A stretch of 63,312 bases of DNA, counting the filler, from Folioceros fuciformis (taxonomy: Eukaryota): the NCBI GenBank assembly GCA_049999805.1. It is 10 parts of 10 records of this genome, joined end to end, with 100 filler letters (N's around TTAATTAATTAA, not from the genome) between each part and the next. Parts side by side here need not be neighbours in the genome. Positions count along the whole stretch, not along the records: positions 45,232 to 48,931 come from JBNGIO010000909.1; 9 more parts are not named here. One strand, 5' to 3'. The notes under the pieces were generated by a model. That model was not told the DNA's origin. It did no database searches and saw only the letters and a list, made by a program, of their open reading frames with translations. Below are positions 16,140 to 63,312 of the stretch, one piece after another (position 1 is the stretch's first letter; each line of letters begins with the position of its first letter). Made by a program: the position numbers and the translations under genes.

Positions 16140-16881
16140 NNNNNNNNNNNNNNNNNNNNNNNNNNNNNNNNNNNNNNNNNNNNTTAATTAATTAANNNNN
16201 NNNNNNNNNNNNNNNNNNNNNNNNNNNNNNNNNNNNNNNCCTACCTACTAACGGGACGTGTTGTTCGATTGGTAGGAACGTGATTGGAAGGTAGAATTCG
16301 GTAGGGGAGGTATTGGGGCCCTTCCAAGTGAAGGAATGGTGCCTACCTATTGATGGGACGTATGGCCAGATTGGTAGGTACGTGGTTGGGAGAGTTGACT
16401 AGTGTAGGGGAGCGATAGACGTAGCTGACCAGGCTCAGAGGGGAGCAATTCCGGGGAAACCTACAACGACCGTGGGATTGATGTGGCCACGATACATGTG
16501 AGCGGGTGCCTGGTAGGATACCGTGCCCGCGTGCCCGCTTGCCCACAGTAATCCGTAGACAAATCAAATCGAATGTATAAAGGTTGAAAATTTTACTATT
16601 TTGAGAGGGTATTTTTTATTGAGTTGTAGTAGGAGCGGTGGTGGGGATGGAGCACGGGAGGGGAGTGGTGGTGGGGATGGAGTATGAAAGGGCAGCCGTG
16701 GAGTGGTGGAGTAGATGGGGTGACAAAGCTTGAGTGTTGATGCAACTTGGGCGACGAGCGGTGACGTGGTGGAGTAGGTATAGGTACACTGCACATCTAG
16801 TTAGGTAATTACTATTTCTCTACTTCTGTACGTACACACATTGTTACAGAGACATAGGATCATAGCCAGTTTGGAGCAGTG

Positions 16882-25858: not shown

Positions 25859-26140
25859 CTGCATGGAGCTCTAACACAGTATAAATACGTTCTAACTCTT
25901 ATAAATCAACCAAAGACGTAGTCATGATANNNNNNNNNNNNNNNNNNNNNNNNNNNNNNNNNNNNNNNNNNNNTTAATTAATTAANNNNNNNNNNNNNNN
26001 NNNNNNNNNNNNNNNNNNNNNNNNNNNNNAATTGGTACATTCTGCTTGTTCCCATCCTCCCCTGCAGGAGCGCTCTCGCCCACGCCGCCGTTGGCCTTTG
26101 CCTGTCACCAGCTTCCCTGTTACTTTAGTCTGACAGTGAC

Positions 26141-33106: not shown

Positions 33107-34477
33107 NNNNNNNNNNNNNNNNNNNNNNNNNNNNNNNNNNNNNNNNNNNNTTAATTAATTAANNNNNNNNNNNNNNNNNNNNNNNNNNNNNNNNNNNNNN
33201 NNNNNNGACAGTCTCTGCTGTAGAGGCCGAGCTTCTGAGTGGTACGAGACAGACTGGTGAAACGCGTTTATCGCGGGCACGTTCACACCCTAAACAGCTT
33301 TTAGCAGATGATTTGCTTAATTAGTTTGCTATTTAGACTGTATATACAATGAGAGGGGGTGTTAAAAATAATAGGTAATTATTAGTACATTGTTATATAC
33401 GTAGAACTTACATTAGGGCACCCAACTGGTAACCCTAGAGGTAGTTATTAGTTGTAACCGTTTTTATGGGTCTCGGACACTTTTGTGCTGAGTTCGCCTG
33501 ACATATAAGATATTCGTTGCTAGTGTGTCTCGAGCGTGTGTGATCTGCATGGGAACGATTCACAAACGCAACAACCATGCTAGTAGAAGAAAGCTCTACC
33601 GAAGTTGGGGAAGCAACAATAGTCGTGGAACCAACAAACCGGGGTGATTGGAATGCTCACCCGCACCAAGAGGACCGGACTGGAGACGGCAGCAGCCATA
33701 GGGACAGAAGGCTCCCCAGCACCCTTAGAAAGCAAAAGATAGACAATCAGGGGTAGCCCACGGGAGGAGGGGGTAAGCACCTCATGTGCAGCAGGAGGCC
33801 AAGTTGTATTAAAGCACATGGATGAGGAGTCTTACATTCCTGGCCTCTATGTGAATGGGGACCATGTACTTAACCTTACTGTCCATGTGCGTGTGAAAAT
33901 AGGAGGGATCAAGGCCTACTGCCAGAAATGAGGACCCACAGGGGATGCTTCTCCCATTGCTTCCAAGTATGGGGGTTGACCCCCTGTTATTCGGAGGCCG
34001 TTTTGAAGGAGTGCACCGAAGAGGAAGCACATGCCTGGGTGGAGCAAGAACCCATAATGATCCTCAGCAGCAGGCGACCAGGAGGAGGAGAGAGGACTCC
34101 CCGGCGGACCCCACCCATGCCTAAGCAGGAGAAGTCAAGTAGTAGTGAAAGCGAGGTGGAGGTTTTATGGGAGGACTTGCCTAACCAGCAGAGGGGGAGG
34201 AGAGCCCAGGGATTTGGCGGCCGAGGAAGGAGGACACAAAGGCCGGATAAGAGGCAAGTGCAGCGTTGAGATAGGCCAGAATTTATTGCATCTTAAAATA
34301 GTGCTTAGTTAAGATTTGGTGAAGATGCTTTCTTAGACCTGATGCTGCTTGCAATTAAGAGCATGTGACTGTTTAGACTAGACATATGGCGGGCTGTGAC
34401 CCCCGCTCTGAACTCGTTGTACAAAGAGGCATGTTGGGGCCTCTCTAATCAGTAAATGTTGGAGACACTCCCAGGTC

Positions 34478-36201: not shown

Positions 36202-37547
36202 NNNNNNNNNNNNNNNNNNNNNNNNNNNNNNNNNNNNNNNNNNNNTTAATTAATTAANNNNNNNNNNNNNNNNNNNNNNNNNNNNNNNNNNNNNNNNNNN
36301 NTATATAGACCTTGTGTTAGTGGCCATTGTAAGAAGCCTAACTACATAATGTAAGCTACTGGTTTTCATATGAATTTAAATATGTGCTCAAAATGAATAT
36401 TTTGCTTAAGTTCCAAGTCTTGCTCGGAATATTCTCTCATAAGAAAATTTGCAGCTTTTTATTCCTTAATTTTTTTTTTATACTTTCTCATAATTTGTTC
36501 ACCAAAATGAATAAACCGCATACAAATGTTCAATTGTAGATGAACTATAACAAAATCTACAGTTTCCATCACAAATTGCGAGGAATCTTGTTTGTGACTA
36601 CTTTATTAATATGAAAGGGATACCTATATTGTTTTTACTAAATAAAAATTTATAATTTTTTGTATTATGTTGTGTTATTATATATATTACTTATGAATCA
36701 AATATTAAGAATTATAGTCTTTACAAAGATATAGCCTTAGGGGTTGTGGGTGTTTGTGGGGCTAGTAAACATGGGCGTCTTGGCTTTTAGTTCTCCAAAG
36801 GCTCTTTCCTCCTCTTGTTTGGGGTAGATGGGATTTTCCATCTCATTTGTGTTTCTTCTTTACAAAGAGTTACATCAAAGATATGTAAAACTTTTATGTA
36901 GTAAACAAAAAAATCCAACCTTTATCTTAGATGCTAGAAAGGAAAGCTTGAAGTTGGTTGGGTTGAGTAGATGGCTTGATCAAGAAGCTTTCTTGTGCAA
37001 AACAAACCATCAGTGCACAAAACAACAATGCGCACCATATGACAAAAGAGGTTGTGCATTTATTAGTCTCCACACCTTCAGAGCACCTCCTCTGCTAGGC
37101 TCTCGAAACCTTATCACCAAAGTAGAAGAAACGCTACAACTAGAAAACGTCCATACTGGCCCCTTAGCATCTTGTTACAAAAATAGCAAAACAATGCTAC
37201 CAACACTTCATGGATTTGCCTATGCAAAGAACTACAAGAGTTCGCTATTGAAAATTTTCGTTGATAAAATAATCCGTCCTACAAATAATGCAAACCATTT
37301 ACTCTACGTATTATAGAACAACACATTACATCCATTTATCCAATTCACACTAGTACAATATACAATATAGCAAGAAATTATGAATTATATCACAAAACAA
37401 ACGACGCAACAATATCGTCAACGAATATAATCTCTGGACATGTTTATCGTCAATATATCGTAATTGAATTATCGATATAATCTCTTGCAATAACACACGT
37501 ATAACGAAGGATTTGTCGCACTGCATAAGTAAGCCTTAATGCTAGAG

Positions 37548-45131: not shown

Positions 45132-45472
45132 NNNNNNNNNNNNNNNNNNNNNNNNNNNNNNNNNNNNNNNNNNNNTTAATTAATTAANNNNNNNNNNNNN
45201 NNNNNNNNNNNNNNNNNNNNNNNNNNNNNNNCTATACAATAAGGAACAGCCTTAATAAAAATAATATTAATCACCAAAGTCTTGATGACTTGATCAAGCT
45301 TAATAAAATGCAAGTAAGGCGCGACGCTCATCAATACTATAATGAACAAAAACAAGCAAATCTTGCTAAGGAACAAATATCCTTAGAGCGAGTCTCAAGA
45401 CATGAAAAAAAATAGAGCAGCAAGACGAAATGCACCCTACTCAGTATCCAAGGTTCGTAACTAGCCACTTTC

Positions 45473-48400
45473 CTATGTCATGTTAGGTGCATAAGTACGT
45501 AGGGCAACTTGTATATTGCATATTTTATGGTGTACCATTCTTTCTGCCAAACCATTAACCTCCAGGTGATTTCTTGAAGTTACCCTATGATCAATAAGGT
45601 ACTCATTTAAAAATTCATCAAATTCTGCCATAAATTCAGTGCCTTGATTTGTCAAAACTTCTACACAAGCCCCAAAAACACTCAACACATGATTAAGAAA
45701 TGCTTTCTTAATGTCATGAGTCTTCTTCTCTCTCAAAGGCACCAAAAGTTTCCACTTAGAAAAATGTTCTATCATCACCAACACATATTTAAACCCTCTA
45801 CGCGTCACTAGTAACTCTCCAGCTAAATTCAAACTCCACCTATAAAACATCCCCCTAATAGGAAGCGGATGAAGCTCAGAAGTTGCCACCCATCATCACC
45901 CTCTCTAACATATTCTTATCTTCCCAGACATCTATTGACACCGAAGGAACTCCCAACTCCACCAAATTCACCAAGTATGCACTCGGAGTCCATCTGGACA
46001 CCACTAGATTACAGTCAACCCCAACATTCTTATCAAAATCTTGCCTGGCAACTGTTGAATCCTCTGAACTTCCTAATGGATTCCTTGGCAACACATCTGC
46101 ATTTGCGTGTTTCACTCCCGCCCTATGCTCAATAGAAAAATTATACTCCTACAAAATAAGTGCCCACCTTGCTAACTTTCCTGTCAACTTTTCACTCTTC
46201 ATCAACCACTTCAAAGGCTGATGATCCGCCACCAACTCAAATTGAGCCCCATACAAATAAGGCATGAAATGCGATACTGCCCATACCGCCACCAAACATT
46301 CCCCATAATATGAGGAATAATTGCTCTGTGCAGAATTGTTACTCATGCTTGCATATGCTACCACATGCTCCACCCCACTCTCATCATCCTGCACCAGCAT
46401 TGCTCCCAGACCAAGTTTGCTCCAATCTATATATAACTTAAACTTTCTATCAAAATTGGGTCTTGTCAGTAAAGGCTTGCTCATCAAAATGTCCTTTAGC
46501 TCCTTAAATGCTCTCTGTTGATCTTCTCCCCAAACCCACACTACATCTTTCTTTAATAACATTGTCATCGGTTTTACCACCATACTGTGGTTTGCCACAA
46601 AATTGCGATAATAATTTACCAATTCTAAAAAGGAGCGCAAAGTTCCCACTTCTGAAGGCGACATCATTTTTGCTATCGCTTCAACCTTAACATCAGACGG
46701 TGCCGTACCCCTAGGCACTATAAAATGTCCCAAATATGCTATCTTAGAGGATCCAAACCTGCACTTTTGTGGATGACATGTCAAACCAACCTCCTTCAGT
46801 CTATCCAACACTCTCCTAACATGCTCCTTATGTTCTTCCACACAGTTACTAAAAATTATCACATCATCTATGTAACACCTAGTGAAAGGCAAACCCCGCA
46901 ACGTTTGATCCATCGCTCTCTGAAAAGCAATAGGAGCATTCTTCAGCCCAAATGGGATAACCACCCATTCCCACTAACATCTATTGCCCCAAAAAGCAAT
47001 CTTCTTCTTATCTTCCTCTTCAATTTCAATTTGATTAAAACCACCCCTCAATTCCAATGTTGAAAATATCTTACATTCACCAATTGCAGCAAAAATTTCC
47101 TCTGGAGTTGGCATTGCATATATGTCCATAGGCGTCACTTCATTAAGCAGCCTATAGTCACCACACATTCTCTTTTCTGTCCAATTGCCATGCACATCCT
47201 TCTTTGGTGGAAGCACCATAGCTGCTGCATACTCTCGCTCCAAAGACCTTATAAATCCAGCTTCAAGTAGCTCTTGACACTTCTTGTCCACAATTTCATT
47301 CTCCAGTTTACTCAAACGGTATGGCCTTCTAAAAACTGGTTCAGAAGTTTTAAGCCGAATCTTAAACTTAAACATCTTGTGCCTACCCAATTCCTTATTG
47401 GAAAAAGCAAATACTTGCCTGCTACTTTCCAAAATCCTTACAAAATCCTCCCTAGCCTCCAAAGTTATCTCATCAGAAATACGCCACTAAAAATCCATAC
47501 ATTCCTGTTTCTCATGGACATTAACCTCATAGCTTGAGCTAGCCACATTCCCAGCTTTTCTTTCTACATCTACAACCTTTGCCCCATATCTCATTTGCTT
47601 GCTCTGCTTACCCTCATCACCTAAAACCTCATCATGCTCTCTCATTCTTTTAGTCTCCTCTCAAGCGTCTAAACCTTCATATCTTCTTACTGTACCCAGA
47701 CTACGTCTCTCCAACCTTGTGCTTAAAATAACTTTCCACTTTCTCTTCCACTCTTGATAAACTTTTATAGACATCATAAGCCACCTAATTGTATTCAAAT
47801 CCATAACTTGTCCGAGTTTTTTATTCCTCTGCTCAAATGTTATGCCCCCTCTTCGTATCAAATATCATCCTAGGTCCTTCCCCTTTAAATGCATTGGCGT
47901 CCTCAAAACTTACAAATGTCGGTAACGCCCTCCTGAGCTCCCCCTTTTTATTTACACAATAAAAAGGTTGTCTATCATCTAAAGTCACATGCTTACTCAC
48001 TCGCCCCTCATCTAATATCTGATCAACTATTAAATCATCATCCCTACGCCACTGACTCATAAGCATCTGCAACAAATGCCTAGGCATCATGTTATTCCAA
48101 AAACAGCGATGCCTATGAGCCCTAGATCCAAACTTCACTACATCCAACTTTATAGGTTCACCCAAATAATACTTGATCTCCTCAAAATCTCGCCTCAACA
48201 CCATTCTTCTATTCATTTACGAATCCACATTCTCAATCAAAAAACCACATTCTTTCCTCTGATGCTTTTGCACCAAATTCAAAATCCTTATTAGCTCATA
48301 AAATAACACCGACCTATAATCCAATAAGCCTTTTTCCTTGCCTGCCATTGAATGCCCTTGACATTCCCAGCCAGCTATTATCAGATCAATTTCTTCCTCC

Positions 48401-48931
48401 ATTTGAAATTGTACTAATCCAGTAAGCTTAACGTCTTGCGGCCAAGTAGAAAACGCTTACTTCACAGCTTCAACCTTTAATTGTTCAGGATACTTTTTGC
48501 ATAATTTAAACACCCTTGCCTTTGCAATTGCCTGACAAACTTCATCTGCATCACAATAAATGTAATGTTTGACCACATTCCCAGTAGCCAACACAGCCTC
48601 TAGACCAAATGCAATCCCAGCAAACAACTCAACCACAACCAATCCATACTCAGACGAATTGTTTACAAACTACTTCCTTTGTACAAAGCTGAATTTTATC
48701 ATCTAGCTAAAACTCAATCTGTCGCTTTTCAAGCTCTCTAAAAATTTCAGCTAATGTTCTACCAACATTTTCTCTCATTGCAATTTCTTCCACTATGTTA
48801 TGACTATATTCCTTTAAAGATAATTATCAATATGTCGCTCCACCCACAATTTATCGTCTTCATCTTCTTCCTCTTGTTCATCCTAAGAAGTTGTCATCTC
48901 TACCACACACACATCTTGCATGTCCTCCTGT
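45473..48931 (-). mobile_element. Ty3/Gypsy LTR retrotransposon pol region (DNMT, RT, RNase H, integrase), degenerate, 5' end in gap
   Basis: RT: RRPYRLS, KRMCGDYRLLN, PFGLKNAP, YIDDVII. RNase H: LYIDWS..GLGAML, YGECL-AVWAV, ADHQPL, KLARWAL. Integrase: VMIEHFSKW, VLTNQGTEF, NGLAERMV. RT-RH-IN order is Gypsy. Confidence 0.93.
47760..48650 (-). pseudogene. C5-cytosine DNA methyltransferase (DNMT3-like) domain within the Gypsy pol; two in-frame TAA stops and a deletion/frameshift
   Basis: Motif I VVELFAGI, motif IV DLIIAGWECQGHS.AG, RSVLFYELIRIL, motif VI FLIENV, motif VIII AHRHRCFWNN, motif X EQRNKKLGQVMDLNTIRWL. Confidence 0.88.
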
Positions 48932-49125
48932 NNNNNNNNNNNNNNNNNNNNNNNNNNNNNNNNNNNNNNNNNNNNTTAATTAATTAANNNNNNNNNNNNN
49001 NNNNNNNNNNNNNNNNNNNNNNNNNNNNNNNTCCTGGATGCTTGTCTCTTGGAATTGGTCACTGGCAAAGGTGACGATGATCACGTTCTGAAACTTTGGA
49101 CGGGTTGCTGCCAGAAGGCCGAAAA

Positions 49126-53451: not shown

Positions 53452-53624
53452 CCGCGCGCCAACCACTAGCTGTGAACGCACAGCTTCTCGCCACTTCTAA
53501 CAACGTCCGAGGGGTGTGACTATGAACTCGTCGACAGTCCAACATCGTGCAACTAACCAATTAACCAACTAAATATCATTGCACCACGCTGAGGTCATGT
53601 TGGGCGTTGCGATGGGCGTAGGCT

Positions 53625-56600
53625 ATGGACACTATTCTCTGCGCAACGTGCCCAGGGGAGCTACGATTGGGGCTCAGGCTTGACCAGGCATCCTCTGCGG
53701 TGCGCTGGACCCCATCGGTGCAAAATCTGCACCCGACTAATTTACAGAAAAGTGGGGAAGTTTATCATGGTGGGGGGCTGGCAACGCGCTCTCCCCTCCC
53801 GTATACCGCAGTCACGGCTGATAACGTGGGCAGATTGTGCGAGCAGGGGAAGCTCATTGAGGCTGTTGAGGGTTTGGGAGTTTTGGTGCCCACCAAGTGT
53901 GGTGTTTTCCCATCTATCTTGTATAAAGTGCTTCGGAAATGTGTGGGAAGGAAGGACATCGTTCTTGGGCGTCGTCTCCATGCTCTTGCAGTGAAATGTG
54001 GATATGAGCCGGATACGTTCTTGTGCAACCACTTTCTGCGCATGTATGCCGGTCATGCCCTGTTGGAGGAAGCGATGGAAGTTTTCAGCGTTGTAGCGGA
54101 GCCGGATGCCTTTACCTGGTCTGCCATAATATCCGCCCATGTCAAGCATGGACAGGATAAGCTGGCCATAGAGCTATATCATCGGATGTGTATGTCAGGT
54201 GTGAAGCCTGATGGGCATGTGTTTGTGGCAGCCCTTCAGGCTTGTGCGAGGGGAGCAGACCTGGAAGCTGGGCAGCAAGTGCATGCTGATGCCTTGGCCT
54301 GTGGGGTTGGGACAGATTTGTTTGTTTGTAATGGGTTGGTAGACATGTATGCCAAGTGTGGGAGTTTGGAGGACGCGCAAAGAGTGTTTGATGGACTTGG
54401 ACATAAAGATATAGTGACTTGGACAGTGCTGATTTCGGGATATTCGCACGGGGGCATGGGTCGGGAAGCACTGGATCTTTACAGTGCAATGGAAGAAGGA
54501 GGCATTGCTGTGCCTGATTCTGTGACGTTTGTGTGTCTGCTGCAGGCATGTGCTTGTGTGGGTGTGCCCGCTCTGGAGAAGGGGAAGCAGCTTCATGCAC
54601 AGATGGGAGAACGGGGAATTAAGGTGGATGTTGTTGTCGGTTGCAGCCTCGTTAACATGTACGTGAAGTGTGGAAGCCTGGAGGATGCTCGGGGTGTGTT
54701 TGATGGACTTGGTCAAAAGAATGTAGTGACATGGACTGCTTTGATAGCAGGATATTCTGAGCAGGGCATGGGGGGGGAAGCCCTGTCTCTTCACCGTACT
54801 ATGGAACAACAAAGTATGGCGGTATCCAATCCTGTGACATTTGTTTGTCTTTTGCGGGCCTGTGCTAGTGTGGGTGCACCGGCTTTACATAGGGGGAAGC
54901 AGCTTCATGCACAGATTACACAAGGAGGGTTTCAGGCTGATGCCCTTGTAGGTGGCGGCCTGGTTAACATGTACGCGAAGTGCGGCAGCCTGGAAGATGC
55001 TCAAAGTCTGTTTGACAGGCTTCCTCAGAAAGATGTGGTGACATGGACTGCTTTAATAGGAGGTTATTCTCAGGAGGGCAAGGGTCAAGAAGCACTTCGT
55101 CTGTACAGTGCAATGCAAGAAGAAAGCAGGGAGGCATTGAACTCTGCGACAATTGTGTGCCTCCTACAGGCATGTGCAAGTCTGGGTATTCCCGCCTTGG
55201 AGAAAGGGAAGCACCTTCATGCAAGGATTGAAGAACGAGGACTTCTTGCCGATGTGAGGGTTGGCAACAGTTTAGTAAACATGTATGTCAAGTGTGGCAG
55301 CTTGGAAGCTGCGCAAACCGTGTTTGACAGACTTGATCACAGAGATGAGGTCTCATGGATTGCCATGATGGCAGGTTATTCACAGCAGGGCAAAGGACAC
55401 GAGGCCCTCCATCTGTACAGCACTATGCGGGAAGAAGGCGTTGTTGCGCCAACTTCTGGGACATATGTGTGCGCCCTTCAGGCTTGTGCAACAGTTGGCA
55501 ACCCGGCGTTAGAGATGGGAAAGCAACTTCATTCAGAGATTGGAGACCGGGCGGATGAGGTTGTATGTTGCAGCCTAATCAATATGTATGCTAAGTGTGG
55601 CAGTTTGGAAGCCGCCCAAGCGGTGTTTGACCGGCTTGATCAAAAAAGTATCATCACATGGACCGCTTTGATGGCAGGATATTCCCAGCAGGGCAGGGGC
55701 CGGGAAGCCCTTTCTCTCTACAGGTCTATGCAACTGGAAGGCATTGTTACACCTGATGCTGTGACGTTTGTGTGCCTCCTGCACGCTTGTGCAAGTGTAG
55801 GTACCCTTGCTTTGGAGTGTGGGCAACAACTCCATGCACAGATTGGAGAACGAGGGCTTCAGAATGATGTGCATGTAGCCAACAACTTGGTGAACATGTA
55901 TGCCAAGTGTGGCAGCTTACAGAATGCTCGTTTTGTGTTTGAAAGGCTTGGCGAAAAAAATGTGGTGTCGTGGAATGCCGTGATAGCGGGCTATTCCCAG
56001 CAGAGCATGGGCCATGAAGCACTTCGTCTTTACAATGCCATGGAACAAGAAGGAATCACTGCACCCGACACAGTGACGTTTGTGTGCCTCCTTCAGGCTT
56101 GTGCAGGTGTCGGCATCTCTGCTTTGGAGGCAGGGAAGCATCTTCATTCACAGATTCAAGAGCAAGGTCTCCAAAATGACGGGTTCTTAGCCAACAGTTT
56201 GGTGAACATGTATGCAAAATGTGGCAGCCTTGGTGACGCTCGTGCTGTGTTTGACAGGCTTGTCGACAAAAGTGTGATCACATGGAATGCCATGATAGCA
56301 GGATACACACAACAGGGCATGGGACAGGAAGCCCTTCACCTTTACATGTTAATGCAAGAAGACGACATGGTTGCAGCTGATTGTGTGACGTTTGTTTGCC
56401 TCCTGCAGGCATGTGCAGACGTGGGAGCCTTGCATGTAGGAAGGCAGCTCCATTCCCACATTGAAGAACATGGGCTTCAATTCGATTCTGTCGTTGCCAT
56501 CAGTTTGATGAACATGTACGCAAAGTCTGGGAGCATGGTTGATGCAGAACAGGTGTTTCAAGGATTGCCCAAACAAGACCCTGCTGCTTGGAATGCACTG

Positions 56601-57407
56601 ATTTCTGGCTACTCCCGTCAAGGAGACAGTGAAGTGGTATTCAACCAGCTTCACAGAATGAAAGAGACCGGCATACAGCCAGCTGGCAACACGTTTCTTA
56701 GTTTACTCATTGTATGTAGTCATGCAGGCCTGGTGACAAAGGGAAGAGAGTGCTTCGCGTCTATGAGCAGAGACTATGGGGTGAGTCCCACATCTGAGCA
56801 CTACAAATGCCTGGTGGATCTCCTGAGTCGTGCCGGCCATTTGGATGAGGCTCTAGCTGTGGTGATGACTATGCCTGTACTCCCTGATGCTGCAGTTTGG
56901 CACACTCTCTTGAGTGCTTGTCGAAAGTGGAGCAACGTGGAGGTGGGGCGCCGTGCTTTTGATGAGGCAGTGAACCTAGATAGGAAAGATGCTGCAGCTT
57001 ATGTATTGATGTCGAGCATATACATCAGTGCCCAGATGTGGGAGCAGGCACGGGAGATGCAGGCGAGGAGGATAGGAAATGGAGCATGGAAGCAGCCAGG
57101 TCAGAGTTGTTGGACAGACTTAGAAGGTATCGTGCACAGCTTTTCGGTCGGGGACAAGAACCATGCTGAGCGTGAAGGTCAGCACCATAGGCACACTCTT
57201 TTCCAAATGAAGAAGGAAGATGCTGTGTCAGACGAGGACTCTTGGTGCGTGTTCGATGTTCGAAACGAAGATCGTTTCTATCCTTGTCGCTGTGCTCTCA
57301 AACATGTCTCCTACCCAAGTAGCCCACCAACACCAGCATTGTACAAAGCCGACGGAAGTTTGCTTAGTACATGGAGGGCATGTTTAATGTGCCCTCTCAG
57401 GCTCTAA
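53625..57407 (+). CDS. PLS-class PPR protein with E/E+ domains and a degenerate DYW-like tail (organellar RNA-editing factor family), single exon
   Basis: Repeated P-L-S triplets (LVNMYAKCGSLEDA..VFD, WTALIAGYSQQG, TFVCLLQACA); HYKCLVDLLSRAG; WKQPGQSCWTD..GIVHSFSVGD. Confidence 0.95.
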   Translation: MDTILCATCPGELRLGLRLDQASSAVRWTPSVQNLHPTNLQKSGEVYHGGGLATRSPLPYTAVTADNVGRLCEQGKLIEAVEGLGVLVPTKCGVFPSILYKVLRKCVGRKDIVLGRRLHALAVKCGYEPDTFLCNHFLRMYAGHALLEEAMEVFSVVAEPDAFTWSAIISAHVKHGQDKLAIELYHRMCMSGVKPDGHVFVAALQACARGADLEAGQQVHADALACGVGTDLFVCNGLVDMYAKCGSLEDAQRVFDGLGHKDIVTWTVLISGYSHGGMGREALDLYSAMEEGGIAVPDSVTFVCLLQACACVGVPALEKGKQLHAQMGERGIKVDVVVGCSLVNMYVKCGSLEDARGVFDGLGQKNVVTWTALIAGYSEQGMGGEALSLHRTMEQQSMAVSNPVTFVCLLRACASVGAPALHRGKQLHAQITQGGFQADALVGGGLVNMYAKCGSLEDAQSLFDRLPQKDVVTWTALIGGYSQEGKGQEALRLYSAMQEESREALNSATIVCLLQACASLGIPALEKGKHLHARIEERGLLADVRVGNSLVNMYVKCGSLEAAQTVFDRLDHRDEVSWIAMMAGYSQQGKGHEALHLYSTMREEGVVAPTSGTYVCALQACATVGNPALEMGKQLHSEIGDRADEVVCCSLINMYAKCGSLEAAQAVFDRLDQKSIITWTALMAGYSQQGRGREALSLYRSMQLEGIVTPDAVTFVCLLHACASVGTLALECGQQLHAQIGERGLQNDVHVANNLVNMYAKCGSLQNARFVFERLGEKNVVSWNAVIAGYSQQSMGHEALRLYNAMEQEGITAPDTVTFVCLLQACAGVGISALEAGKHLHSQIQEQGLQNDGFLANSLVNMYAKCGSLGDARAVFDRLVDKSVITWNAMIAGYTQQGMGQEALHLYMLMQEDDMVAADCVTFVCLLQACADVGALHVGRQLHSHIEEHGLQFDSVVAISLMNMYAKSGSMVDAEQVFQGLPKQDPAAWNALISGYSRQGDSEVVFNQLHRMKETGIQPAGNTFLSLLIVCSHAGLVTKGRECFASMSRDYGVSPTSEHYKCLVDLLSRAGHLDEALAVVMTMPVLPDAAVWHTLLSACRKWSNVEVGRRAFDEAVNLDRKDAAAYVLMSSIYISAQMWEQAREMQARRIGNGAWKQPGQSCWTDLEGIVHSFSVGDKNHAEREGQHHRHTLFQMKKEDAVSDEDSWCVFDVRNEDRFYPCRCALKHVSYPSSPPTPALYKADGSLLSTWRACLMCPLRL

Positions 57408-57770: not shown

Positions 57771-60186
57771 TCTTCTTGTATTTTCAATTCAAAATTGGTG
57801 AATGCATAAGACTCGAATAGCGTCTGGATCAGGGCTACCATCGCAGATCCAAAAGGTGTGGGATCGGATCCCTTGTAGCTATTTGTATAAGAGGAGAGCC
57901 TTGATCTTTTACGATCAAGAGAATGATTTCACATCGTGTTTTTTAGATTAGAAAATTAGAATTGGTACACTTTTCTAGTCTTTGGTTCTCATATTGGGAT
58001 CACTTGGCATTGCTTATTATCCAAGGGCTTTCAGGCATACCAAACCATACAGAGGGGAGGTTGGACTATTTATTGGTTTCACCTAGAGTATCTACGGGTA
58101 TTTGCCACAAGATGCTTTTTTGCTTGTGTCCAATTTAGACATAACCCCAAAGCAAACACTTCAGCCATACCAGACATTGAAAATTGCACACGCTTTAAGA
58201 GTTTTCCCACACTTCTCTCTTGTTCAATGTGATTTTGCATTTATCCTTCTTGTTTTCATGGTTTAGGGTTTGTTTAGGGGTTGCTGATGGCNNNNNNNNN
58301 NNNNNNNNNNNNNNNNNNNNNNNNNNNNNNNNNNNTTAATTAATTAANNNNNNNNNNNNNNNNNNNNNNNNNNNNNNNNNNNNNNNNNNNNGACCCGCCG
58401 GCTCGCGCAAATTCGACTCAACTGAAGCCGGAATATTCTGAAACTGTCATGGATTGGGCGCGTCGGGTATAAAAACGCAAGCAGCCGGGTCCCAGATCAT
58501 GTCATGTGTGGATCGTGGAGCCTCGCCGCTGCTGTGTGCTGTGTGCTGTTCTTCCTGCTCGTGCTCCTGCTGCTTTCTGTTGCTTGCAAGCAAGCGAACC
58601 TGCCTCGAGCGCGTGTGGAGTTGCGTGTTACCGTCCCGCAGTCATTGCTGCTGTTTAGTCCGTCAACCGCTCGCTTGTTTTTTTCCATCTTTGCTGCCTC
58701 CGGTTTCTTCTAGTTGCAGCGTCCCGTGTAGAAGAGCGCGTTGGATGTTGTTGTGATGCAGAGATCCGGGAAACAGTGCAGAGCGGACTGTTTTGCTGCA
58801 TGACTTGGTTGGTTGTATGTATGTGTGTTGCTCACGTTGTTGCAACCTTAAAGCGTTTTTTCGCTACCTACCTGCAGCTTGCCAATGGATGACGTCTGTG
58901 TCTACACAGGTGGGAAGTGGTTGAAGACGGTGGTCTTTGTTGCATGCATACGATCGTGCGGCCTGGCAGAGCGCAAGTAGCTTTATCGGAAGCTGTCGGC
59001 CACGGCCAGAGGAGTTCTTGCTACTGCAACTGATTCTCTTTACTCTTGCTCACACCTCAAGGCTTGATATTTTTTTCGTGGCCCCAGGCTCCAGGAGCAG
59101 GCCACGGACAGAATCATCCAGCCTTGAGTTGTGGGCGAGCGTAAACTGGAACAGTGATGAGTAATGGCGTACGCGCGTGGGAATCACGTCTCGCTACTCG
59201 TTCTTGTTGCCGAGAATGTGAGGAGGGCCCGGCGTCACGGCTCTCCCGGAGGGTCGAACCTGATGAGCGGAATATGGACTTCGAGCACTCCCCCAAGTCT
59301 CGGTCTCGCAGAATGTTCTTCTGTTCTTTTCCTTCACTCTTAGAAGATATTTACATACAACTTTCTGCTCGAAATCTCACGTGGTCAGGCATTGGAGCGG
59401 CAGGCGACCCATTGGCCGCTTCCTTCCCTTGAAGACAGTTATGTTGTGTACGAGAAGCAGACGATAGGCTGCATGCAGACTCTGCAGTGTAGATGCGTGA
59501 TTCTGTTGCGTCTCCTAACATGCTTACGTCGAGCCATATGTGCCTGAAAGGTGCACACGAAAGATGTATTCAATTCCACAAAGTGGCGAACACTGTGTGT
59601 GAATGAGTGATAAGCGATGATGCGTGTAAATGATATTCAACAGTAGGTGGCGTCCAAGTATCACTCAGAGTCTCATGTCTCGGTGAAGGGGAAGAAGAGG
59701 AGTTCACCACTTCACGTCATTGGTTGAGTTGGATGCAACAATAAAACTTGTGACATTGTTTTGAACGAGGTTCATCCCCGCCAAATGCAAGCCAGCAGCA
59801 TGGCATGGGGCCTTTCTTCGATTTGAAGTTCTCAGCTTGCTGCTTGCTGCTAGCTGCGCTTGTTCAGCACACTAACTCGTGCTGCACAGCTGCAAATTCT
59901 GCAACACAGCAAGAAAACAAACCACTTGTCAAATGGTTCAGTACGTGTGCCATGTGCCTTTCGCCTTGCCTCCGTTTGCCTTGCTCCTAATCAAGGGAAA
60001 GACGGACCGCAACAAGAAAATGAACGGAGACGCGGATGACAATTACCTCCTGCTGCTGGATCCGCAGCAAGGTAGAAGAAGCCAGGCAAGGGTATGGGGA
60101 TTACTTCTCCTTTGGAAAGAAGGAGACACAGAAGGAAGGGATGCAAAAGGAAGAAAACGAAGCAGGAGGAGGAGGAGGAGGAGTGA

Positions 60187-60555: not shown

Positions 60556-60655
60556 NNNNNNNNNNNNNNNNNNNNNNNNNNNNNNNNNNNNNNNNNNNNT
60601 TAATTAATTAANNNNNNNNNNNNNNNNNNNNNNNNNNNNNNNNNNNNNNNNNNNN

Positions 60656-63312
60656 CAGGTTGAACCATGTACAAGACCTCCTCGAGTTCGCCATGAAGGA
60701 AGACCGTGCATACGTACATCTGGTGGAGTTCAAGGTCAAATTCAGCAGCCATTGCCAACAGAATCCGGACAGAGGGTGGCTTAACGACGGGAGAAAATGT
60801 GTCTCCATGGTTAATTCCAGGTATCTGCGAAAACCCACGAGCTACTAGACGTGATTTATACCGGGCAATTGACCCATCTGCCTTGAGCTTGGTTTTAAAA
60901 ACCCACTTACATGTGATAGGTTTCCTTCCAGGCGGCAGATCTGCAAGTTCCCATGTGTGATTCTTCACCAAGGAATTATACTCGTCATTAATGGAGATTC
61001 TCCAATGCTTGCCATCAGGCCCCTCTAGGGCTTCCTTGTAACTCTGAGGATCAGGTCGAACCTCAGGCACATGTACATCAGAAACATGAGCAGACGGCCT
61101 TCGAAAATCAATGGCCTGGTATGGAGGTTCCTGCCACTCAGATCGTGGCCTGCGCTCACGAGCAGGGTACCTAGGAGAGGTATCCCCCACTGCAGCAGCA
61201 GAAGCGGTATCCCCCACTGCAGCAGGAGGAGGTACTCCTTCTCCATTCGATGAATCTGCATTCACGAAAGAGTTTGCTGAACCAAGGGAGCCATCATCAC
61301 TGCGACTTGCAACGCTGTCAGAATCTGCATCCACATCTGATTCAGGGTGAGCAGCATCTGAAATGTGTTCATCATCACTGTCCTCTTGACCAGCAGGATC
61401 TGCAACTGCAGGGATCTGATCATTGGCTGCGTGCATGGCAGGATTCTGAGGACAAGGCTGTCCAAGCTGAACAGCTAGAACAGGTGGATTAATTAGTTCA
61501 TCCACAGCTGTTAGATCAGCAGCATCTGGTGACTCTCCATCAGACTGTGGATAGTGCATAGGAATTGCAACAGACTGCTCATCTAGTAAGGAACCTGAAC
61601 GGGAAGCATGACCTGAGCTGAGTGTATCACCATCAGTCTGTGGGAAGATAAGCTCCTTGAACGTCGCACTCCTTGACAAGGTAATTTTGGATGTGACAGG
61701 ATCAAACAGTTTATATGCCTTAGATTCCTCAGAGTAGCCTACAAAGACCAGCTGTTTAGCCCTATCATCTAATTTCTTGCGCTTTGCCTCAGATATGAAA
61801 GCAAACGCTGGTGACCCAAAGACCTTGAGATGCTGCAAGCTTGGCTTCCTTCCCTAGAAAGCTTCGTATGGCGTTTTGCCTGGCAGGGCTGAAGTAACAA
61901 CTCTGTTTAGCAAGTAAGTTGCTGTAACAACAGCCTCTGCCCAGTAGCTCTTGTGCAGCCCTACGTATGATAGCATGCACCTAGTCATTCCCATAAGTGT
62001 TTGGTTTTTCCTCTCGGCAACCCCGTTTTGCTGCTGGGTATAGGGCACAGAGAGTTGGCGAATGATTCCAAACTGCTGGAAGAGGTCATCAAACCTTTGG
62101 CCTGTGAATTCCCCGCCGTTATCAGTCCTGAAGCACTTCACCAGACAGCCTGGTTGGCATTGCACCATAGGGATCCAGGAAGCAATCTGATCATACACAT
62201 CACTTTTGTGTCTGATAGGAAAGTCCGCGTGTATCGTGAAAAATCATTTGTCAAGGTTAGGTAGTATTCTGCACCTCCTAATGATTTGACCTAAATTTTT
62301 CCAGCGATATCAGCGTGTATGAGTTCAAGCAGAGCCTTAGCATGGTTAGGAGCTCTGTTCTTGAATGGCAGCTCTTTCTGCTTAGAAAGAATGCAAGAGC
62401 TGCAAGACTCCAAGAGCTTGAAACAAGAAGGTAACTTTTCCCTATACAGATCTGAGTTGGCCATGACGTTAAGCTTAAACTTATTGACATGGCCCAATCT
62501 CGCATGCCAGAGATTAGCCTGAGCATATGATGCAGCCACTAACGCCCTAGCCTTACTTTGTAACCGTGACAAGCTGGTAAAGATCATTAACCAGGATGGC
62601 CTTTGCTACATAGTTTTGAGGATTAGACAGTTCGTAAATGTAGCACTTCCTATCCTCAAATCGAAAGCCATACTGTTGACTTTGTGCTACATCCCTAATG
62701 CTAAGCAAGTTTTTGCTCATGTCAGGTACAAACAGCACATCTTCTAAGTGCAGAGACGCACCTCCCAGCAAAGGTATGACTACATCACCACAGCCCTTAA
62801 CGTCTACACCTCTAGAGTCCCCAACAAACAGTGATTGTGGAGACTTGTGTTTGTGAAAGGTGGAGAACAGCTGGCGGTTGTTACAAACATGTGCAGTGGC
62901 ACCTGAATCAACAAACCACGATGATGAAGTTTCCCTATAGGACGTCAGGCAAACTGTTAGTACAGAACTGCTGCTCTTATGTTTCTGCTGATGTGTGGAG
63001 TTGCTCTTCTCATGGGATGTGACATGTGCCTCAGACTTGCTCTCCTTCTTGGCTTCGCCGGCTTTCTTCTTGCGGCAGTCACGTTCCCAGTGACCTGGCA
63101 CTTGACACCAGTTACAATTTCCTTGTCGTTTGGGAGTGGCAGGAGTCGAGGAATTCTGGCCTTGAGGTGAGTTACCCTTCTTCCCTTTCCCCTTCCAAGG
63201 TCCTTTGCCTTTTGTTGCAAACAGGACCTTCTCACCTCGAAGACGAGTGCCACCTGATTTATGTCTGCTCTGCTCCTCTTGCAGGAGAGCTCCAATGACT
63301 TCATTCAGATTC
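60656..63312 (-). mobile_element. Ty1/Copia LTR retrotransposon (gag knuckle, protease, integrase, RT), degenerate, truncated at both ends
   Basis: CNWCQVPGHWERDC, WFVDSGATAHV, LWHARLGH, RTDNGGEF, QQNGVAERKN, KKLDDRA, CKWVFKTK..YKSRLVARGFSQ; PR-IN-RT order. Confidence 0.95.

Follow-up and report, generated by a model that had tools for sequence, protein, structure and literature searches.

The DNA analysed here, a 63-kb window (63,312 nucleotides) from the Folioceros fuciformis assembly GCA_049999805.1, is not one molecule but ten contigs of 2.2-10 kb each, chained by nine artificial N44-TTAATTAATTAA-N44 spacers (N44, TTAATTAATTAA, N44, at 9996-10095, 16140-16239, 25930-26029, 33107-33206, 36202-36301, 45132-45231, 48932-49031, 58292-58391 and 60556-60655), and adjacency across these spacers carries no meaning. 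The subject of this report is a stand-alone contig of 3700 bp (JBNGIO010000909.1, 45232..48931), flanked by the N runs and TTAATTAATTAA linkers of the spacers 45132-45231 and 48932-49031, which holds on its minus strand the decayed remains of a Ty3/Gypsy retrotransposon with a DNMT3-like cytosine methyltransferase (DNMT) domain. Since the element is alone on its own contig, it is without physical linkage to anything beside it in the window. Searches with blastn or tblastx found no pieces of this DNMT-Gypsy family on the other nine contigs, and an Rfam scan of the window returned a single tRNA and nothing else.

The methyltransferase remnant is formed by the open reading frames 48457-48669, 48217-48456 and 47833-48216, which translation confirms to be, as the original prediction held, a single minus-strand frame interrupted by two TAA codons (48459-48457 and 48219-48217). 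Read with X at the stops, this frame matches PF00145 with 42.9 bits (cut-off 22; E 5.5e-11). The DNMT3-like C5 cytosine methyltransferase domain with motifs I to VIII occupies 47854..48660 (minus strand), which tblastn aligns at 40.5% identity to residues 933-1201 of P0303, the translation of the metagenome locus L003. In the translation, and in an alignment of 19 family members including the contig (alignment A1), motif I reads ELFAGIAFG, motif IV GWECQG (48375-48358, the catalytic Cys being retained), motif VI ENV and motif VIII RAHRHRCFWNN. Motif X lies in another frame (LGQVMDLN at 47816-47793, in a region spanning 47775..47843 on the minus strand), where tblastn resumes at P0303 residue 1230 in frame -3 and the alignment agrees. 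The order along the contig, I, IV, VI, VIII and X, is unpermuted, unlike in DRM, and the predicted succession of motifs I to VIII with motif X beyond a frameshift stands. About 28 residues including motif IX are deleted at about 47847 (tblastn against P0303), where contigs of other copies from the public sequencing runs X1-X3 hold extra sequence (47847/47848). The full in-frame motif set (I, IV, VI, VIII, IX and X) is present in L003 and in a second metagenome locus, L001; this copy does not have it. Only 271 nt of contig remain upstream of the DNMT.

On the same strand, about 280 nt beyond the DNMT, follow reverse transcriptase (RT), RNase H (RH) and the integrase (IN) core. The linker between DNMT and RT (47487..47774, minus strand) contains the stops TGA 47663-47661 and TAG 47489-47487, and run contigs tile across it (X2 47448-47791, X2 47629-47844 and X1 47585-47817). 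The RT (RVT_1, PF00078) lies at 46725..47207 on the minus strand (E 3.1e-27; P0002 residues 152-312) with TAG 46976-46974 inside it, and the Ty3/Gypsy-type RNase H at 46143..46532 on the minus strand (PF17917, RT_RNaseH, E 7.8e-32; PF17919, E 2.8e-30) with TAG 46151-46149 inside. A remnant of the integrase catalytic core, in a third frame, covers 45488..45964 of the same strand (PF00665, rve, E 2.1e-8 at 45808-45572; tblastn to P0303 residues 2014-2170). The order from RT through RNase H to integrase, with RNase H domains of the Gypsy type, is that of Ty3/Gypsy elements, and these Pfam matches agree with the Gypsy RT, RNase H and integrase that had been predicted downstream of the DNMT; the profile search proposed at that time, for PF00145, RVT_1, RNase H and rve on the stop-bridged translation, matched all four.

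Compared with P0303 by tblastn, the contig copy is collinear in three pieces that sit in three different frames, namely 48660-47854 (residues 933-1201), 47843-45888 (residues 1230-1940) and 45964-45488 (residues 2014-2170). The H2C2 zinc finger (73 residues, P0303 1941-2013) is deleted, with a frame change near 45890-45960, and no tblastn match in the contig was found to P0303 beyond residue 2170, that is to the integrase C-terminus and PHD finger. Gag and protease (PR) are absent as well, the contig stopping upstream of the DNMT. The matched frames contain six in-frame stops and two frame changes. At columns invariant in seven relatives, residues are kept in 41/49 cases in the DNMT, 135/175 in RT-RH and 43/60 in IN. 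Among single-step replacements at these columns C>T (12.7) and G>A (11.0) predominate, A>G and T>C do not occur, and 19 replacements need more than one step; the excess of C>T and G>A in the absence of A>G or T>C is the pattern expected of a methylated, decaying repeat. The contig copy is a dead, truncated relic without function. The proposal that the element packaged a methyltransferase able to methylate its own cDNA or insertions thus fails for this copy, which is broken and can neither package nor methylate.

The 3′ tail of the copy (45232..45487, minus strand) has no similarity to the coding region of the relatives (no tblastn match). Summed depth in X1 is 842-1082 over 45232-45479 as against 98-525 across 45604-48827 (77 in the last bin), and over 45232-45530 it is two to four times that of the rest of the contig in both X1 and X2. 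Run contigs often break or duplicate at 45480-45533, and a 484-nt contig of an independent run, X4, shows the same rearranged form of 45479-45529. The tail may be a piece of a long terminal repeat (LTR) or another, more abundant repeat. Two contigs of X4, a run presumed to be RNA (unconfirmed), touch the element's contig by only 26-51 nt each.

When the contig's DNMT stretch was used as a phmmer query on 1.84 billion cluster representatives, 1737 matched at E<=1e-3 and 126 at E<=1e-30, numbers which imply that the domain is not a chance match, with an identity to the contig never above 47%; many of the matched proteins are polyproteins of 1000-3456 residues. When the contig's DNMT, RT, RNase H and IN were mapped onto 169 proteins, 15 of which belong to one cluster, RT or RNase H preceded the DNMT in 74, including 42 with the full order RT-RH-DNMT-IN, and the DNMT preceded RT in only seven. 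The others showed DNMT-IN (15), DNMT alone (68), IN alone (1) or nothing (4). The contig copy has the rarer order, with DNMT before RT; among members of this order, only those of Closterium sp. NIES-53, NIES-54 and NIES-65 (polyproteins P0071, P0115, P0123, P0148, P0167 and P0175) bear an organism name. Judged from its sequence, the contig is a member of a large, mostly undescribed family of Ty3/Gypsy elements bearing DNMT3-like domains. A part of P0117 matches a streptophyte-dominated DNMT cluster (protein atlas score 0.91), which is a lead only.

Relatives with uninterrupted or nearly uninterrupted frames show how a complete element of this lineage is built. P0051, with 2188 residues in one frame, contains a zf-CCHC knuckle (530-547), a protease (796-888, below the Pfam cut-off), the DNMT (978-1226) and RVT (1421-1575), after which RNase H, H2C2 and rve continue in the same frame. 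The 9.3-kb locus L003 has a frame from 976 to 8229 with a lone in-frame TAG, L001 being alike, and Pfam places in it the DNMT (940-1086), RVT (1498-1656), RNase H, H2C2, rve and a PHD finger (2360-2404); two CX2CX4HX4C knuckles upstream of the DNMT were recognized by eye in L003/L001-type relatives. In Closterium P0175, Pfam identifies zf-CCHC, protease, DNMT and RVT. The complete arrangement in intact relatives of this order is gag (with zinc knuckles), protease, DNMT, RT, RNase H, integrase (H2C2 and core) and PHD finger. No direct repeats of at least 60 nt occur on L003, and on L001 there is only one tandem pair of 144-nt units (127-414), which are not paired LTRs. As a separate observation, a PHD finger after the integrase ends both domain orders (L003 8053-8187; P0009 residues 1535-1579). 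Chromoviruses carry a chromodomain after the integrase, and the PHD finger may be a reader of histone tails used for targeting.

Phylogenetic analysis groups the contig with the elements that share its domain order. In a maximum-likelihood tree of RT-RH with 58 rows, whose bootstrap was not fully settled (correlation 0.989), the contig and all 11 DNMT-before-RT rows form one clade with support of 100/100 as against 46 RT-RH-DNMT-IN rows, and a quick RT-RH tree recovers the same clade with support of 99. The nearest rows are the metagenome loci L003 and L001, at 55% identity over 455 columns, while the Closterium rows make up a subgroup without the contig, which falls outside the clade of Closterium and the ENA relatives. 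In a FastTree phylogeny of 153 DNMT domains the contig sits on a long branch within a set of 39 rows (SH-like 95) that includes all nine DNMT-before-RT rows and zero RT-RH-DNMT rows. The agreement of the DNMT tree with the RT tree excludes a chance neighbourhood. With its DNMT directly upstream of RT, and with RT and DNMT both grouping accordingly, the contig falls in the minority lineage gag-PR-DNMT-RT-RH-IN-PHD. The original prediction of a Ty3/Gypsy element with its own DNMT is upheld by the single-frame relatives P0051 and L003 together with the 100/100 RT-RH clade; its further suggestion, that a lineage of streptophyte elements possibly continued into the embryophytes, is one that the trees allow, their support going no further than that.

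As to the kind of methyltransferase, the contig's DNMT alone matches DNMT3A (8e-7) just ahead of M.HhaI (7e-6). The profile built from alignment A1 is far more decisive against a structural database, giving DNMT3A at 3.2e-24 (DNMT3A/B/C ranging from 3e-24 to 5e-21) and lower scores for tobacco DRM (3.9e-11), HhaI (5.6e-10), DRM2 (4.6e-8) and DNMT2 (3e-5); DNMT1 was not retrieved at <=0.01 in this search. The label DNMT3-like given beforehand thus holds at the profile level (DNMT3A 3e-24 versus DRM 4e-11 and M.HhaI 6e-10) and in the unpermuted motifs. In the structural database, the family profile finds its best matches in cellular DNMT3A/3B, which have the same motif order; unlike them, the family is without PWWP or ADD, has (P/E)CQ rather than PCN in motif IV, and is embedded in a retroelement polyprotein. 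Motif IV is Pro-Cys in 10/19 aligned members and Leu-Cys in 1/19, and its Glu-Cys form is a recurrent natural variant that occurs in both domain orders.

Between L001 and L003 the DNMT has a ratio of nonsynonymous to synonymous rates (dN/dS) of 0.119 and RT-RH-IN-PHD one of 0.059, and from the value of 0.119 it follows that the DNMT is kept by selection. In intact elements the DNMT would be made as part of a Gag-PR-DNMT product and would thus end up next to RT in the particle. In the two metagenome loci the TAG with its context (L003 5083-5091; L001 4661-4669) separates DNMT from RT, the next two codons being CAG TTA in L003 and CAA TCA in L001. The context CAR-YYA is the tobamovirus type of readthrough context; in these two relatives, then, the DNMT lies upstream of a leaky-looking TAG and Pol could be made by readthrough, which would leave Gag-PR-DNMT as the main product. 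The contig's own TAG at 47489-47487 was considered as the counterpart of this readthrough stop and was rejected, since it aligns to an Asp codon of the relatives; at the place of their TAG the contig is deleted and rearranged. The DNMT would most likely serve to methylate de novo the cDNA that the element has just made, or its new insertion, and the PHD finger at the C-terminus probably directs integration through recognition of histone tails. The contig copy is one of many diverged copies, most likely in the nuclear genome of the hornwort to which the neighbouring contigs belong, where it would have decayed by GC-to-AT transitions, as is typical of methylated repeats.

DNMT-carrying retrotransposons have been described in Symbiodinium and Klebsormidium, according to the main text of PMC5890265, with which the earlier statement of known cases agrees. 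In KnitGypsy-Dnmt3 of Klebsormidium nitens, a Dnmt3 lies in the Pol ORF of an LTR Gypsy, and its DNMT is reported to be under purifying selection (Ka/Ks < 0.2; PMC5890265, main text). The element described here resembles it, as far as that main text describes it, in being an LTR Gypsy with an unpermuted, intron-less Dnmt3-like domain in the polyprotein, in its streptophyte setting and in purifying selection on the DNMT (0.12 for L001/L003), and differs in that its host is probably a hornwort, not a charophyte, and that the contig copy is dead; the comparison is made with the published description, no K. nitens protein having been identified among the hits (23 proteins looked up). SymbioDIRS-Dnmt3 of Symbiodinium also has a Dnmt3-like domain in a retrotransposon Pol. 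It is however a DIRS element with a tyrosine recombinase, from another eukaryote supergroup, for which the authors argue independent acquisition (PMC5890265, main text). In yeast its DNMT3 domains show de novo CG methylation, and the authors put forward self-methylation of the cDNA (PMC5890265, main text); this activity is the basis of the self-methylation idea taken up above. The main text of PMC12344493 mentions only the earlier Symbiodinium and Klebsormidium cases. In the main texts of the literature searched, we found no further report of a retrotransposon DNMT in hornworts, bryophytes or other land plants, Closterium or Zygnematophyceae.

Closer counterparts come from the databases. The Closterium polyproteins share with the contig the DNMT directly before RT and the same RT clade (100/100), whereas their DNMT is only about 37-39% identical and the contig branches outside their group; their database entries are without description, and no paper on them was found in the literature searched. 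Closterium is a streptophyte and belongs to the class of algae commonly regarded as the sister group of land plants. L003 and L001 are the nearest relatives found and are intact (gag, PR, DNMT, TAG, RT, RH, IN, PHD), differing in their lone in-frame TAG, the site of which is deleted and rearranged in the contig. Gypsy elements of the majority form, RT-RH-DNMT-IN(-PHD), such as P0009, are likewise akin to the contig (DNMT 39% identity, E 3.7e-47; related RT, RH, IN and PHD), but have the DNMT between RNase H and integrase and RTs on the other side of the 100/100 split.

The base composition of the contig is unusual. Its GC content is 0.395, compared with 0.474-0.541 in the other nine contigs, and its plus strand has G at 0.117 and C at 0.278, so that the coding (minus) strand has C 0.117 and G 0.278; C at third codon positions is 0.07, versus 0.16 in L003. 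That the C-poor coding strand is a bisulfite artefact was rejected, because the unconverted X1 and X2 agree with the contig where X3 differs, and because, relative to L003, A has taken the place of lost C more often than T has. Deamination confined to one strand (APOBEC-like or RNA editing) was rejected as well, C>T (12.7) and G>A (11.0) being balanced at invariant columns and the relatives being already C-poor at third codon positions (L003 0.16). Run X3 derives from the sample that also gave X1 and X2, and at certain sites where these two show no G>A, all X3 contigs have it; the 12 X3-only sites listed are all minus-strand CHH cytosines, CHH making up 298/432 minus-strand cytosines overall. 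X3 may be a bisulfite- or enzyme-converted library, and if it is a C-to-T converted library, the CHH sites of the family are unmethylated. This would fit, as a hint only, the situation in Anthoceros agrestis, for which near-absence of CHH methylation and CG/CHG-only methylation are reported in the main text of PMC10952607.

The assignment of the element to a host draws on the neighbouring contigs and on the run sets. An intron-less 4-coumarate-CoA ligase (4CL) of 494 residues that runs off its contig end (43645-45131, minus strand) is 96% identical over 100% of its length to the 4CL of Anthoceros agrestis, the next match being at 79%, and a PLS-type pentatricopeptide repeat (PPR) protein with an E motif is encoded in one 1261-residue open frame (53622-57404, plus strand). 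PLS-type PPR proteins with an E motif are of the type of organelle RNA-editing factors and are abundant in hornworts; together, the 4CL identity and the PLS-type PPR indicate that the assembly is a hornwort's. In a word search of public runs, the contig's words were found only in runs under one organism label, and none of the runs listed was an RNA run. Run contigs lying on the 3.7 kb number 699 in X1, 630 in X2 and 1102 in X3, with 85-100% identity and all 30 bins covered, and these hundreds of diverged short contigs imply that the family is highly repeated in that material. We regard it as likely that the element is resident in the hornwort. The original placement in a land plant was put too firmly: it draws only on the co-assembly with hornwort contigs and on the read sets under the same label, with no physical link.

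Taken as a whole, the evidence leads us to favour, with good but not overwhelming confidence, the reading that the contig is a decayed copy of a DNMT3-bearing Ty3/Gypsy element, most likely hornwort-resident, whose intact relatives would methylate their own cDNA or insertions. Several observations weigh against it. The element stands alone on its contig with no physical link to hornwort DNA, and the composition of that contig (GC 0.395, strand skew) differs from that of the other nine. X1 and X2 are not independent read sets: they contain no more than 0.31 and 0.29, respectively, of the contig's words, belong to a single sample and study, and may have been the source of the assembly itself. 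The organism-named relatives are algal (Closterium), desmids and other streptophyte algae share habitats with hornworts, and no named closer relative was present among the ten nearest or most identical DNMT representatives looked up. As regards function, the Pro-Cys of motif IV reads Glu-Cys in 8/19 aligned members (the contig and seven others), readthrough is drawn from two related loci while P0051 and P0180 are without a stop there, and the domain of KnitGypsy-Dnmt3, the closest published family, gave no methylation in yeast, a result that the authors call inconclusive (PMC5890265, main text). Several of the same observations would be accounted for if an element of the same kind came from a co-sequenced eukaryote, for example an epiphytic or soil streptophyte alga, swept into the assembly. 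The contig stands alone and is unlike the others in GC and strand skew, pieces of the family are missing from the host contigs, the organism-named members of the lineage are all Closterium, the nearest relatives (55% RT-RH identity) are metagenome contigs, and every run holding the element is from one sample. Yet the RT-RH of the contig lies outside the Closterium group and is not nested in it, and the three runs contain hundreds of diverged variants with a per-contig depth of about 6-26 each, from which it follows that the source genome must be well covered. In addition, the CpG depletion of the contig (observed/expected 0.43) resembles that of the window's last contig, which carries Copia pieces (60656-63312; 0.41), and the CHH context of all 12 X3-only changes listed, if X3 was converted, fits the CG/CHG-only methylation of A. 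agrestis (PMC10952607, main text), although this is a hint only. An algal origin is thus in our view unlikely, if a good deal too plausible to be set aside.

It could also be that a host DNMT3 gene or a retro-copy of one came by chance to lie beside an ordinary Gypsy, or that two repeats were joined in a chimeric assembly, since the assembly is fragmented into short contigs, the family is highly repeated, and many run contigs have breakpoints at 47847 or 45480-45533. The first of these breakpoints, however, is accounted for by the deletion in this copy; a consensus of the loose ends there, translated by hand, resembles the motif IX region of the relatives (a reading by eye, not computed). Moreover, the same DNMT-then-RT order with a short linker recurs in uninterrupted frames of intact relatives, the DNMT tree (SH-like 95, FastTree) and the RT tree (100/100) both place the contig with those elements, and overlapping run contigs of other copies tile from motif X through the linker into RT. 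We consider this explanation highly improbable and close to refuted, and retain the reading of a genuine DNMT-bearing Gypsy element.

Two features of other contigs were noted in passing. Ty1/Copia pieces with RVT_2, SH3-like and Pol beta-barrel domains lie at 60656-61853 and 62553-63311 (both minus strand). An R2R3-MYB-like gene at 3-2118 (plus strand), recognized from the ORF list alone, has long polyglutamine and Ala/Ser-rich runs and lies in a stretch of 63% GC.

The contig is probably the first land-plant record of a DNMT3-bearing retrotransposon. One could imagine, though we hold it to be rather doubtful, that a PR-DNMT-RT Gypsy lineage already existed in the ancestor shared by Zygnematophyceae and land plants, and that in the hornwort it has persisted and expanded to hundreds of copies; some of these copies may be intact and express Gag-PR-DNMT ahead of a leaky TAG, and such copies may contribute de novo methylation where the hornwort's own CHH pathway appears silent. 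On this reading, hornworts would be the first land plants in which retrotransposons with a de novo methyltransferase of their own are known. The family in public (meta)genomic data is in any case not rare, and is larger and more varied than the literature says, with two domain orders, a PHD finger on the integrase, a frequent Glu-Cys motif and a possible readthrough stop. Its members carry the very enzyme by which retrotransposons are ordinarily silenced. If the hornwort case is true, the strategy would have crossed into, or entered, land plants, and the effect on a retroelement of encoding its own methylation could be studied in a tractable plant.

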